Source: Escherichia phage ETEC-TG | Direction: 5' to 3' (one strand) | Sequence record: OR786310.1 | DNA length: 64,000 nt | Part shown: piece by piece, positions 33,001-39,000 of the stretch | How the letters are laid out: each line of letters opens with the position of its first letter | Numbering within the stretch: position 1 is the first letter of the stretch | Program-made: the position numbers

Positions 33001-36000
33001 TAAGGCTTTGATAGGGACGAAGCCTTTATCAGCATATTGATCGAATTGTTTGACACGGTGGCTTGTGCAGTCTTCAAACTCACATTCTAAACGATATGCA
33101 CCTTTTCGACGAGCCTCAAGACCGTGTGTACTGAAAATAACAACACTTCCTTCACCATCATTACGATCTACTTGATAAGCAACCACTGGTTTTGAATTTG
33201 ACATTATTTCTCCTTATCTAGAAGATTGTTAGACAAAAACACTGCACGAGCAAAACCACGTGCGGTTAGTGATCTAAGTTGTTTTGTTTTTGCACTAGCT
33301 CCACCTAAGCTTTTCCAACCCCAGAAGCAGCCTATATGATCTACTGGTTTCTTCACTGGTTGAACAAAACCGTTGCCGTGCCAAATACAAGTTTTCTTTG
33401 TATACCCATCACGGGTAGGCATTTTAGGATGAAAGCTTCCTTCCTCTTCAAACAAATACCCACCATACTCATAAGGATCAAAGTAAAAATCGGGTTTACG
33501 CCATAAGGTTGAAAGTTTACCTACTGGGTTCTCAATCATCCAAGGAACATTATATTTGTTACCCAAAGCTTCCACTACACGAATATTAGCTAAAGCTTCA
33601 TCCAATGCCTCTGTGCTGCGTTCGTGTTTGCTACCACTACCTGCTAACATAGTGCAAGGTGGAAATCCAAAAATAATATCGGGTTTAGGTATCCCATGAT
33701 CTTCAGGGTTGAATGTAGAATCTATCCAGGCATTCACATAGGTTATGTTTGGGTGCTCCATCCTAACCTCGTATTTACCGTGATCCCCTTCATCAGCGTT
33801 TACACAAAAACATTTGTGACCTGCTTCGGCATAACGTAACACCATGATCCCAGATCCGTCAAACATAGACAAAACTGTTTTACTCATTACCCCTCCATTC
33901 AAGACAAGCCATAACTTTACGCCAATCACTTTCTGTAAGAAAAATCTCGTTTGCTTTCTTCCACAAATCTAAATCGTGAAGGGTTGGAATACGATATGTT
34001 AGTTCACAGAATCTATGCTCTTCTTCTGTAATATAACCAAAATGCAGAGCCACATCGTGAAACCAACACCAACCATGCATCTCTCGAACAACATGGTCAT
34101 GTTGAGACATTATTTTATGCCGTAAACCTAACCAACAAGGAACAGATACTTTAGTAGTCTTTAATCTGTGATCAACAGTATTAGAGTATTCAATAATAGC
34201 TGTCAGTTTCAATCGTGCTTTTTCTAAATCCTCATGGGTCACTTTGAAATAACTTTCTGAAAGATATCCACACATATTAATAACCTCCTTCAAAAGGCTT
34301 AACTACATGTTGATTAGCTTTAAAACGTTCAACATAGTCGTTTTCGCCCATGTTTTCATATAGCTTAGTAATAACATAAAAGTTTTCCCAAGCATATTCC
34401 CTAAACCAACCACTAGTGATGGATGTGCAGACTTTAGATAAAGCCATTATAAAACTTTGCTTAGGGGTTGGACCTCCGATCTCTTCACCGAAAGGAATTT
34501 GTGAACGTTCCAAAGCCAAAACACACGCTTCTTCATAAACACCTAACAGGCGCACATGTTTTGGTTGAGCAAAAAACTTTTCTTTGCTGGTCATAACTTC
34601 ACTTCCATCTTTCATATAAGATTTATATGCTGGAGCATCCATTACCGCGATTGCTTCATGGATAGAATCATGATCATAAACATACGGAACCTCATCACCT
34701 TTAAAGAAGTCTTTACTTTTTACGTTTAAGTTCGGATGAGAGTAAGTGTATGTTTCTTTCTCACGCAACTCATAAATACTCTTAAGATTTTCTGGGATCT
34801 TTGCACCCAGTGACCGCATGAAATGAATATCTTTCATAGTTTTAAAGAAGTGAGGACTATCCTTTTTAAAACGATGACTCATTTTAAGAAGGTAGAGCAC
34901 ATCTAAAGGAGCAACAACATGTCCAGCGTAAGTTCGACGAACATCATCAGAATCTTCACAATAACTAATCAAAGCTTCTGTGCTATCTCCTTGAGAAGCA
35001 ATATCGTATTCCAAATGTGCACCAGCTATCATTTTGACATGGCCTTTGTTTCCTTTACGTTCTACAAGTTCAACAAACTCATCTTGAGAGAACATTTTTG
35101 ATAATTCTTCCCACTCTTGTTCTGTACACAGGTAATCTAAATCTACACAAGGGCGATACAAGTCTTTTCCCATGTCCATAGCATGAATTTGTAATGCACG
35201 GCTACCAATTAACACCATAATATTTCTCCTCTATTGGTTGATAGGTTAAGTTTATCAAGCTTCCAGATTCCTGTCAATAAAAAACCCGCCGAAGCGGGTT
35301 ATTATTTACTAACACATTGAGGAAGAAGAGATCCAAACACCTCTTGTGGTTAAACCATTTTCATCCAACTCTACACCATAATCTTCACAAATGAAATCAA
35401 TATAGTGATCTGCGGCTGGCGTTCCTGTAGGGTAATAAGTTTCTCCGTTACCGTAGTCACCTATCCAAGCTTGTTCCTGAAACTGTTCACAAAGTTCTTC
35501 AATTTCCTTACGAAACTTTCTTTGTGCTTGTTCCATCTCTTTAACTTTCTTTTTTATCAGCAGTTCGCCTTCAGACTCCACAATCCCTCCTTAACAGCTA
35601 CTACTGTGCCAAACGCCTTGAGAATTAACGACGAAACCATCATCACCTTCACCATAACAAGAAGAGGATTGCCAATCTTCAAAACAGATTGCGTCATTTT
35701 CTAAACTAAGACCAAAACCAGCATCTTCAGCTTCTTTTGTAAGTTCGTCCACTAAAGCCATAATAGCTTGGGCTTTTTCAGTTAATTCTTCAACATTACG
35801 ATCACTCATTAGTATTTCTCCTCTGGTTGGAAAACTGAACGACAAGCCCACATACTAGCTTCTTTTAAATGTTTAATAGCACAACGGATTTGATCAATAC
35901 GTTCGTATGCAAGATCTAATTCTTTTTCTGTGCCGTCAAAAGACCCATGATATGCTTCACAATACTCTTCCTCTAAAGCTTTGAAGATTAAACCTAAACG

Positions 36001-39000
36001 CTCTTCTGCATCTTTAATAGCGTTAACCTTGCCAATCTTATCGTCAGTATGCGCCTTATAACCTTTGATATCTTCGATTCCCACTTTACCTCCTATTAAC
36101 AACTTAAAGAAGATGGATGCCAATTTGTTCCAGTATTCTCATTTTCATCTTCTGGATCATAATAGCCACCCATCCCATATTCAGGGGAGAAACGGAAACC
36201 TTTACCAGTCTCATCTGCTAACTGCTCTGCTTCGGCTAAAGCCTCATAAGCTGCTTTTACGGCTTCTTCTACTGTTTTAAACTTGGTCGTCATAAAATTT
36301 CTCCTCTCCTAAAGACATGTTGACATGAAATGCACGATATGTAAATTCGTTGTCCGTTGTGTTTGAATAAAACTCAAATTGAACAACACCGTCTTGAGAA
36401 GACAGATACATGCCAATTTGAACTGTTCCTTCTGGTACCAGGTAAGCATACTCTGGACGTAGTGTTACATTGTAAAAATAAAGTTCCCCAACACCCATTT
36501 CATCCCAAGCTTCCCAAGCGGTAACGAAGTTACTTTCAAAACTTGTTACTGATCCGAACTCTGCCATAAAACCTCCTCAATCTTGTAGTTTGACTCCATC
36601 TCCAACACATTTCCACGAACGTCTCTCCGAAGAAAGGCATAAGCTTTATTAGGTATTGTAGACTCATATTTAACCATATCTGGCACAGCAAAAGATACTA
36701 CTACTCCTGCTGGGCTTCTGTCAAGAGCCTTATTAATATTTCTAAGGATATCGTTAGCCAAGATTTCTGCCAATTCTCCAAGAACGGTTTCGGTTATATC
36801 TTTATATCCCATTAAGTATTTGTTGATATCTTTCATCTCTGTATTGTTCAGAGTATAATCCAAAGGATAGAAATTCAAAGCGGAGTCACTTTTATGTGTC
36901 CACATGAAATGCACCCGATCCGAGCAGAATCGTAACCCTCTTTGAAGAATATCTTCTACAACAGGCAGAATTTCTTTTGTCACATCATTAACCATGTTGT
37001 AATCTAAGATTTCTGCCAAGTTTGTTCTTTGTTCACCACGTTTACGTTTAGGAATCACTTGTTATTGCCCTCATTACCAAAGGTCGTAGAAAATCGTAAA
37101 TCTCTTGTTTTGTTTTCCCACGAATGTTTAAACAAGGAACATTATTGGCTTTAGCTATCTTCCAAGCCGTAGCTGTTCCACCTTTTGCATCTCCATGTTT
37201 ATCAGTATTAGCACAAGCCAACAAGAAACATGATGGAGCAGGATTCTCCAAATCTCTACCTAACACTTGATGCACATTACGTTGGTGCAATTTTCTAGCA
37301 CCCTGCTTAAGCTTTTCATAGGCTGGGTGAACATCTTTGATCCATTGCACAGAGATAGCATAGTTCATTGTATCTGGTTTTGCAAGAACAATAACATCCC
37401 CTGGAATCTGATTACCTTTGAAATTTTCCCAAGGAACATAAATCTCCTTGTTAGTAGGATTTTCAGACTCTTGGACACCTGTTTCAAAAGCAGAATCACT
37501 ACCCTCTGCCTTCCCAGACCTTAATTTAAACCCAAGGTTTGAAAGCCATTTCCCTATGCCTACCATCAAAGCCCACTCTTCTTCGGATATGTCTCTACTT
37601 CCAACTCCCGTATAGAACAGTTCTGCCATAATCACCTCAACAAGTAATTTCAAAAGGTGTATAGGGTTCCGTATTTCTCATGATCCAAGGACTGCTAGGA
37701 TTGCTCGGATCATAAGGGCCAAAAGGTTTTATGGTAGGTTGTGTTTCTTTCTTCTGAATCTCTTCAAAAATACGACGAAGTTCAGAATATTCTTGATCCA
37801 CCATAAGATTCGGTGCATCTGATTCTACAGCTTGCAGGTTATCTTCCTTAAGAACAATCTCACGAACAAGATTAACATCTTCTGTTTCTAAGATAACTTC
37901 TTTACGGATATTGCCTACACTTTGAATAATTGTAATCTTATACATTAATCCTCCTCAAGAGTTGAATAAAATTGAAGACCACCGTCCATATCGAAATAAG
38001 CAAATGTTAAGTTATTATTGAACACAGATCCAGTATCCATATAAACACGATTCGCATTGATAACAGGTGTTTTTACATAAGAGTGTCCATGAAACACATA
38101 ATCCACACCCATCACAACAGGAAGTTTCATTCCCTCTTTAGCACAGTCTACCATATCTCTGTCCCACATAAGTGCTTCAGCAAAACGGTTTTCCTGTGTT
38201 TTTGTCATCTTCGAAATGTATTCTGGAATATCTGTTACAGGGAGATATTCCAAAGAAGATGGATACCCACCATGAATAAACGCAAGTTTCATGCCTCTGT
38301 AGTTAACAATGAGAACAACAGGTAAATCTTCTGTCATCATTGCTAAGGCTGTAGCTCCTTCTTCACCACATTCTTCAAAGACCGTATATCCTCCATTTTG
38401 ATACCAACACTCGTAGTAGCTACGATCTCCTTCCAGCATACCTTTAATCATCATGTCTTCATGATTGCCACGAATAGCGTAGCGATTGTGTTTACGAGTA
38501 AATTCTAAAACACAACGAAAGTTTTGCTTTCCACGGTCAGTAAGATCTCCTAGAGATACAACCACATCTGTATCTCGGATACCTAACTTTGCCTTTCCTT
38601 TTTCATACAAATTATAACAACCGTGTAGATCTCCAATTATAAAAAGATCTTGATCGCTTTTAACAGTAATTTCTCTGTGTATGATCACTTATCCTCCTCA
38701 AAATCTAAGAAAATAAAAATATTCACCTTTCCTTCAATCTCTTGTTCTAAAACAAGATCGGCAAATTCTGCATAAGCTTTCTCTTCAACTTTTTCAATAT
38801 GTTCTGCGGCATCTTTAAAAGGTGTATCCCCATCCACCTTTACTAATAAGAAAAGAGATCGCATTTCGACGCTTTTACTGTTACGAGGAAGGAAATCTAC
38901 AGCTTCAACAATTCTCCAACCCAAATAGCCAGGGGTTTTATGAATCTCCCCTAAATACTTTTCTAAGATTTTACGACCCTCGTCGATAAGGGCTTGTTCT

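Follow-up and report, generated by a model that had tools for sequence, protein, structure and literature searches.

A Cys-terminal tail shared by small acidic phage proteins as a probable interface with the MenT-like nucleotidyltransferase encoded beside them

What is the function of a short C-terminal tail, composed of a tryptophan, a run of serines and a cysteine, that recurs on three neighbouring small acidic proteins of Escherichia phage ETEC-TG? The question is raised by a 64,000-nucleotide stretch of this phage (sequence record OR786310.1), hereafter the window, in which the three genes, named A, B and C here, lie upstream of a gene encoding a nucleotidyltransferase with the domains DUF7277 and DUF7275. 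Comparative sequence analysis and structure modelling indicate that A, B and C, together with the downstream MenT-like enzyme, probably form a conserved module in which the tail serves as a common interface with the enzyme, because the family to which the small proteins belong is almost always encoded just upstream of one such nucleotidyltransferase. The main open reading frames (ORFs) are listed below with their lengths in amino acids (aa) and, for the small proteins, the expect values (E) of their matches to PHROG 899 and to the hidden Markov model (HMM) of the family.

36096-36293, minus strand: gene C, ORF of 65 aa; PHROG 899, E 1.2e-12; family HMM, E 1.8e-20
35591-35809, minus strand: gene B, ORF of 72 aa; PHROG 899, E 1.4e-5; family HMM, E 6.4e-9
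35309-35581, minus strand: gene A, ORF of 90 aa; PHROG 899, E 5.1e-14; family HMM, E 6e-18
34277-35218, minus strand: DUF7277 plus DUF7275 nucleotidyltransferase, 313 aa, assigned by Pfam

A preliminary description of the locus had placed the three small ORFs at these coordinates without giving a strand; ORF calling confirmed the positions and assigned all of them to the minus strand. Their products are acidic and 65-90 aa long, as had been described, with pI values of 4.40, 4.05 and 4.31 for A, B and C, and with 19/9, 16/3 and 13/5 acidic (Asp and Glu) versus basic (Lys and Arg) residues, respectively. The translations contain the tails GVWISSSSMC (A), GVWHSSSC (B) and NWHPSSLSC (C), as well as the internal DWQSSSC of B, all of which the same description had reported. 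The segment W-I-S-S-S-S-M-C of A is encoded at 35312-35335, W-H-P-S-S-L-S-C of C at 36099-36122 and the terminal W-H-S-S-S-C of B at 35594-35611; the internal W-Q-S-S-S-C of B (35657-35674) is directly followed by YGEG, reflects an internal duplication and is kept in all B-type orthologues, including those of T4-like phages. In a six-frame regular-expression scan of the whole window only these three ORFs carried the tail at their C-terminus, the sole other match being internal to a 41-codon ORF, and the family HMM matched only A, B and C within the window. The serines are drawn from both the TCN and the AGY codon boxes (TCT TCT TCC TCA in A, AGT AGT AGC in B, TCT TCT ... AGT in C), which argues for selection at the amino-acid level and not for a DNA or RNA element. 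All three proteins are homologous over their whole length (a helix, then G-x-x-F, then YG-x-G, then the tail) and are diverged paralogues of one family, C having the canonical YGMGG and A the form YGNGETYYP. The preliminary description mentions neither this homology nor the Acb2-like gene between B and C, nor the enzyme gene just beyond its coordinates. For A, the RefSeq form consists of 75 aa starting at ATG 35536; we prefer the 90-aa form, which begins at GTG 35581, since an AGGAGG Shine-Dalgarno sequence lies 4 nt upstream and the N-terminal extension is kept in orthologues at 71-76% identity, which have an ATG at the matching position. Homologues of A were found by tblastn in 415 phage records, mostly T4-like.

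All three proteins match the C-terminal 75 positions of PHROG 899, a family annotated as functionally uncharacterised, and profile scans of A, B and C gave no match in Pfam, NCBIfam or PADLOC. In members, an amphipathic N-terminal helix that closes with A-D-x-x-G-h-x-F leads into the loop YG(M/N)G(G/E)-x-Y-(Y)-P, after which come an acidic linker of variable sequence and the tail, whose consensus is G-W-x-[S/P/A]-S-S-x0-2-Cys-COOH. An exhaustive profile search over 1.84 billion cluster representatives (clusters at 50% identity) assigned at least 946 clusters to the family at E<=1e-3 and 298 at E<=1e-10; the matching representatives are nearly all 65-120 aa long, and the alignment extends to the final residue. 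The preliminary description had named absence of the tails from orthologues as the observation that would refute it, and the sequences clearly show the opposite: the tail, ending in Cys, is retained in 110 of 112 close homologues and in 146 of the 147 top (distant) representatives. Position by position, 259 members have Trp in 258 cases, Ser at W+3 in 258 and Ser or Thr at W+4 in 254; 209 have Cys at W+7 and 46 have it at W+5, and in 127 of the 259 the terminal Cys is the only one. By these counts, nothing else in the family is as well conserved as the tail, and this holds in several phage lineages.

Some array proteins with the tail are longer, reaching 140-170 aa (contig L032, 3451-4332; L039, 2935-4313; L067, 4461-4985; L120, 2500-2961), and tail-bearing proteins of this kind end in ...AWCSSSMIC, ...DWDSSSMYC or ...NWDSSTC; one variant, ...GWISSSICW, has a residue beyond the Cys. 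The idea that these carriers join the tail to unrelated domains was rejected, as they proved to be N-terminally extended members of the family.

Family genes form same-strand tandem arrays of 1-6 copies in Phapecoctavirus, T4-like phages, Otagovirus and jumbo-phage contigs. The T4-like phages Dhakavirus ESCO10 and Kanagawavirus PEi20 carry five consecutive tail-ending genes, among which A-type and B-type members are recognisable, and 26 IMG/VR contigs of 11-389 kb, retrieved by the YGMGG pattern, contain 1-5 adjacent copies. Types A, B and C are each common to Phapecoctavirus and T4-like phages; T4 itself, where the e.x region was examined, has no family member. In the ESCO10 record (Escherichia phage vB_EcoM_ESCO10, OM386655.1) the label 'inhibitor of prohead protease' is given to a family member of 97 aa, 'helicase' to an ORF of 93 aa and 'group I intron endonuclease' to one of 65 aa. 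These product names are plainly mis-transferred and unfit as functional evidence, and the lead to the T4 inhibitor of prohead protease was discarded.

The arrays are tied to the enzyme gene with great regularity. Each of the 28 loci found via the small proteins has a homologue of the DUF7277-DUF7275 enzyme directly downstream of the small-protein genes and on their strand. In the reverse direction, retrieval via the enzyme alone yielded 80 IMG/VR loci, 69 of which contain 1-6 HMM-detectable family genes and about five further ones divergent tail-bearing ORFs; pooled, family members are present at 100 of 113 enzyme loci. All 241 members at these loci are on the strand of the enzyme and 235 are upstream of it, with a median gap of 377 nt. 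This linkage occurs in Phapecoctavirus, Tevenvirinae, Twarogvirinae (Acinetobacter), Otagovirus (Pseudomonas) and jumbo contigs of 350-390 kb, a spread that makes common descent of a single genome block unlikely. The module is essentially restricted to phages, with 5 matches in 185,579 species genomes, all of them on contigs of metagenome-assembled genomes. No small protein was found without the enzyme among the loci retrieved, and enzyme relatives at 27-37% identity in Gordonia, Streptomyces and KVP40-like Vibrio phages occur without small proteins; the genomic dependence is thus strictly one-directional, the enzyme occurring without the small proteins and not the reverse. Fusions of the Rosetta-stone type between a small protein and the enzyme were absent among 120 enzyme homologues. 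Four enzyme-bearing IMG/VR contigs (L035, L036, L037 and L045) form one clade that lacks small-family genes in the upstream 5 kb; a stop codon interrupts the enzyme ORF of L037, which may represent decay of the module.

The surroundings of the array were examined as well. Between positions 34000 and 38000 the window shares 99.5% identity with Escherichia phage vB_EcoM-Ro121c4YLVW and with some 60 further Phapecoctavirus genomes (Stephanstirmvirinae); the records of these phages label all genes considered here 'hypothetical protein'. Read from right to left, in the direction of transcription, a DprA-like gene is followed by PHROG 8569, PHROG 4991, C, an Acb2/Vs.4 homologue, B and A; a strong intrinsic terminator lies 3' of A and is immediately followed by a near-consensus promoter (35277-35249), beyond which the enzyme gene starts, 91 nt past the stop of A. 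The intervening features are:

35809-36084, minus strand: homologue of Acb2 and T4 Vs.4, not a family member; PF24729, E 2e-16
35283-35300, minus strand: intrinsic terminator at the end of the small-protein operon, stem AACCCGC-TTCG-GCGGGTT then TTTTTATT
35249-35277, minus strand: predicted sigma-70-type promoter of the nucleotidyltransferase gene; TTGACA, 17 nt, TAAACT, with a TG extension

The promoter was recognised by a consensus scan (10/12 matches, sequence read directly), from which we infer its function; with the terminator and the promoter between them, the small-protein genes and the enzyme gene would be separate transcription units in this phage. The gene lying between C and B matches the Pfam family Acb2_Tad1_hairpin (PF24729) and T4 vs.4 (phmmer, E 4e-30), placing it in the anti-CBASS cyclic-nucleotide sponge family. 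It has a GTG start after AGGAGG, its TAA stop overlaps the ATG of B (TAATG, translational coupling), and it is unannotated in RefSeq NC_052654. The three family genes adjoin one another in the related contig L028, where Acb2 is missing between C and B; the Acb2 gene was therefore either inserted into the array or lost from L028. A, B and C themselves gave no match to PF24729, the family of Acb2/Tad1 sponges. Further early genes on the minus strand flank the array at 33204-33929, 36277-37058, 37048-37653 and 37945-38688; they include a DNA methyltransferase, the PHROG-only genes 4991 and 8569, the DprA-like gene (PHROG 768) and a NinI-like Ser/Thr phosphatase, and RefSeq shows a Sir2-like gene further downstream. 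Overall, the flanking region looks like an accessory or counter-defence-rich one.

Such surroundings bear on the possibility that A, B and C are independent effectors of host takeover or anti-defence, for instance nucleic-acid mimics or ligand sponges, whose tail binds a host target and whose adjacency to the enzyme reflects a shared island. The Acb2 anti-CBASS gene embedded in the array, a weak signal of a counter-defence neighbourhood, fits this explanation, as do the DNA methyltransferases, the Sir2-like gene and the NinI-like phosphatase among the neighbours; the proteins are small and acidic, like many DNA mimics, and their Gly-rich YGMGG loop could in principle bind phosphate. Accessory islands, however, shuffle fast, yet the order of array then enzyme on one strand persists in the 100 of 113 loci and in unrelated lineages, while a phmmer comparison of eight other neighbours in the window found them in the closest relatives only. 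The lack of PADLOC, Pfam and NCBIfam matches also speaks against it, and we regard independent effectors as improbable.

Of the four roles that the preliminary description had offered for the tail, those of a modification site and of a partner-binding tail are favoured by the strict linkage to the nucleotidyltransferase gene, whereas a degron would leave that linkage unexplained. The single, terminal Cys of 127 of 259 members makes a self-contained metal site unlikely. The AlphaFold2 model of protein C, built from a 36-sequence alignment and of modest quality (predicted local distance difference test, pLDDT, 75), consists of a sheet of three short strands against which a long helix (residues 8-29) packs. 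The last strand contains the Trp of the tail, and S-S-x-x-C is the lowest-confidence segment; the tail of the monomer is therefore probably flexible and appears exposed. A structural or redox tail, in which Cys disulfides or a shared Zn or Fe site oligomerise the proteins and Trp and Ser contribute the last beta-strand, could account for the inclusion of W58-P60 in the modelled third strand of protein C, for the two motif copies of B and for the additional (D/E)-W-x-S-S mini-repeats of many members. It is hard to reconcile with the single Cys of those 127 members, with the placement of Cys as the last residue at W+5 or W+7 and not at a fixed structural position, and with the reducing state of the cytoplasm; since it also leaves the enzyme linkage unexplained, we consider it quite improbable.

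The presence of several precursor-like genes beside one enzyme, and the S-x-x-C-COOH spacing of the W+7 class, recall instead the precursors of ribosomally synthesised and post-translationally modified peptides (RiPPs), in which an AviCys-like C-terminal core would be cyclised or decarboxylated; in a related proposal the tail would be a C-terminal degron for a host protease. The locus, however, encodes no LanB/C/M/D, YcaO or radical SAM enzyme, the pattern of conservation is reversed, the 'core' being invariant and the body variable, the bodies are predicted to fold as alpha/beta domains, and the P-S-S-C subtypes have no Ser at -3. To our knowledge, the tail is also unlike known bacterial C-terminal degrons. 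Both possibilities appear very remote.

The model of the enzyme, built from a 34-sequence alignment, has a pLDDT of 91 and a predicted template-modelling score (pTM) of 0.85, and a fold search with it retrieved nucleotidyltransferases of the pol-beta fold, the closest being MenT1, MenT3 and MenT4; the bilobed MenT-like fold with the motif I/II carboxylates and the motif III Lys is present. Invariant in the 34 sequences are G5-S6, D26-x-D28, E70, K112 and D130, together with H115, H123, H161, H183-D184 and H187. The motif C-T-S-I-T-S-G-x-F-R is likewise invariant and lies in a C-terminal helical domain that has no structural match. With the fold and the catalytic residues intact, the enzyme looks catalytically competent. 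At the sequence level, DUF1814/AbiEii gave no match in the enzyme, Pfam at E<=1 returning only DUF7275, DUF7277 and a weak CLCA; NCBIfam returned nothing relevant, and neither single-sequence nor profile comparison with the PDB produced a match, so that only the fold search was informative.

Two assignments of the enzyme were considered and rejected. RlaP, the RNA-ligase-associated pol-beta enzyme (PMC7824862), was set aside because its family, PF10127, is absent from the Pfam scan at E<=1. The phage nucleotidyltransferases of Ho et al. (bioRxiv 10.1101/2022.06.09.495361) were rejected on their catalytic signature, the enzyme of the window reading IGSRALQIHAMDMGKDLYRPCVDLDY. As to wider relatives, DUF7275 proteins of 508-571 aa occur in giant eukaryotic viruses (BFVD A0A3G5AJ90 of Sylvanvirus and A0A3G5AE53 of Satyrvirus), and a weaker fold similarity extends to the poly(A) polymerase catalytic subunits of nucleocytoplasmic large DNA viruses.

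The closest folds, those of the MenT type, belong to toxins that extend tRNA 3' ends (PMC10435456). The DUF7275 gene, or the whole module, repeatedly adjoins phage tRNA clusters, as in Gordonia phage BrutonGaster (gp8; L118, 1974-2768), ESCO10 (L002, 1-137) and contig L087 (about 3500-4600), and this adjacency, together with the activity of the closest folds, may hint at an RNA substrate. In the MenAT1 system of Mycobacterium tuberculosis the 68-aa MenA1 blocks the active sites of MenT1; its gene usually directly precedes that of the toxin, 15 of 21 menA1 genes being followed by a menT-like ORF (PMC10435456). The small proteins could accordingly be MenA1-like inhibitors or specificity regulators, the acidic body mimicking nucleic acid in the substrate groove and the tail plugging the active site; the real substrate of the enzyme would then be RNA or tRNA 3' ends, and the paralogues would time or redirect its activity. 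Gene order and size range match those of MenA1-MenT1, the proteins are strongly acidic (family median pI 4.4), they never occur without the enzyme, which does occur without them, and the frequent adjacency of the enzyme gene to tRNA clusters is also in line with this explanation. It is, on the other hand, hard to justify why a lytic phage would maintain 3-6 anciently diverged, non-redundant inhibitors of one enzyme; the family shows no sequence similarity to MenA1, its profile gave nothing relevant in the PDB, the enzyme lacks a DUF1814/AbiEii match in Pfam at E<=1, and the transcription units in the window are separate. Taking these points together, we judge inhibition of this kind rather unlikely.

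Pol-beta nucleotidyltransferases are known to nucleotidylylate hydroxyls of proteins as well as of sugars, with MntA acting on HepT, and GlnE and GlnD acting on their respective targets, as protein-modifying precedents. The reading that we prefer, tentatively and at somewhat below an even chance, is that the tail engages the enzyme as its substrate and that the invariant Ser is O-nucleotidylylated. In this proposal we infer that tail and enzyme touch, which reaction follows and what the modified proteins act on: the tail would insert into the active site, where the Trp would stack at the usual position of the base, the catalytic metal site would hold the terminal Cys thiolate and the alpha-carboxylate, and the nucleotidyl group would pass to the hydroxyl of the invariant Ser (W+3 or W+4). 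The enzyme would in this manner 'write' on a panel of tagged acidic effector proteins, whose differing bodies may act on different host targets in early infection, for host takeover or counter-defence. If the tail docks in the active site, a substrate appears likelier than a MenA1-like inhibitor because one enzyme gene serves 1-6 anciently diverged paralogues, because the N-terminally extended members of 140-170 aa retain the tail, and because the tail is of low confidence, and probably flexible, in the monomer model. One enzyme with many diverged clients is the normal pattern of modifying enzymes.

Several observations weigh against the substrate reading, and some of them against the inhibitor explanation as well. 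The latter group comprises the terminator and the separate promoter between A and the enzyme gene, by which expression is not strictly coupled; the internal W-x-x-S-S-C that B-type members keep at a place other than the C-terminus, from which it follows that a free alpha-carboxylate is not essential for every copy of the motif; and the absence of covariation between the C-T-S-I-T-S-G-W-F-R motif of the enzyme and the presence of small proteins, W-to-R variants of this motif occurring both with and without them. For the substrate reading itself it is unfavourable that unrelated small ORFs can intervene before the enzyme in T4-like phages, that the spacing from W to Cys falls into two classes, 5 and 7, and that the protein-modifying pol-beta enzymes known to us modify Tyr, not Ser. 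Finally, the nearest structural relatives modify tRNA 3' ends, and MenT1 is inhibited by a small upstream protein (PMC10435456), in keeping with the inhibitor explanation.

A more general form of the substrate reading would regard the tail as a genetically portable tag and the DUF7277-DUF7275 enzyme as its dedicated writer, which would covalently nucleotidylylate the tail, or otherwise activate it or ligate through it, in a phage-specific system of protein tagging; small acidic effectors would in this way be armed for host takeover or counter-defence. The evidence for portability is weakened by the finding that the tail carriers of 140-170 aa are members of the family, and we consider this form possible but doubtful. 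If true, such a tag-writer system would be a new kind of viral post-translational modification, using a MenT-like scaffold whose other known targets are tRNA ends. The module is carried by hundreds of well-studied and therapeutic phages, among them T4-like coliphages, Phapecoctavirus, Acinetobacter, Klebsiella and Aeromonas myoviruses and jumbo phages, and every component of it is annotated as 'hypothetical'. A near-invariant eight-residue C-terminal signature tied to a single enzyme offers an unusually direct experimental handle, and either outcome, substrate or inhibitor, would explain what two DUF families and one large PHROG do. Strategies by which phages counter translation or immunity of the host, so far undescribed, could also come to light.

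Full-text literature searches found no description of DUF7275, DUF7277 or PHROG 899, nor of a C-terminal cysteine in connection with Tevenvirinae. Ho et al. (bioRxiv 10.1101/2022.06.09.495361) described phage MNT-like nucleotidyltransferases that make competitor cyclic dinucleotides and whose adjacent genes include counter-defence factors. Like the present enzyme, these are phage-encoded pol-beta nucleotidyltransferases in anti-defence neighbourhoods, but their signature, GS-x-AY[GAN]T-x4-SDxD with a downstream NP-x-h2-[DE], is replaced here by G-S, 19 residues and D-L-D; they constitute a different clade, and Cys-tailed small proteins are not described in that paper. Ubiquitin-like and Pup-like tags are characterised by a C-terminal Gly-Gly (GGQ/E), by a beta-grasp fold or a disordered Pup and by an E1-like or PafA-like ligase, whereas the tail here ends in Cys, the model comprises a helix and a three-stranded sheet, and the adjacent enzyme has the pol-beta fold. 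LPXTG/sortase, PEP-CTERM/exosortase and the carriers of CitX and MdcG likewise combine a short invariant signature, C-terminal or Ser-containing, on diverged proteins with one co-occurring processing enzyme. CitX and MdcG bear a nucleotidyltransferase signature, and their small acidic carrier proteins receive a prosthetic group from them on a Ser. Unlike these systems, the present proteins have no membrane anchor or signal peptide, and no homology to those enzymes or carriers was found.

Closer parallels are offered by two systems. In HepT-MntA (HEPN-MNT type VII) a pol-beta enzyme nucleotidylylates a hydroxyl of its linked partner, which by analogy is the chemistry proposed here. The acceptor in those bacterial systems is a Tyr of the HEPN RNase, and the enzyme, MntA, is minimal, whereas A, B and C have a Ser-rich tail, are acidic and lack the HEPN R-x4-6-H motif. 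From MenAT1 the present module differs in being phage-only, with 1-6 paralogous small genes per enzyme, in the invariant Cys-terminal tail of small proteins without similarity to MenA1, and in the large extra C-terminal helical domain (DUF7275) of an enzyme without a DUF1814 sequence match. MenAT1 and HepT-MntA, the closest known systems, thus resemble the module in logic, and it is set apart from them by the lack of a DUF1814 signature and of MenA1 or HEPN homology, by its restriction to phages and by its multiple paralogues.

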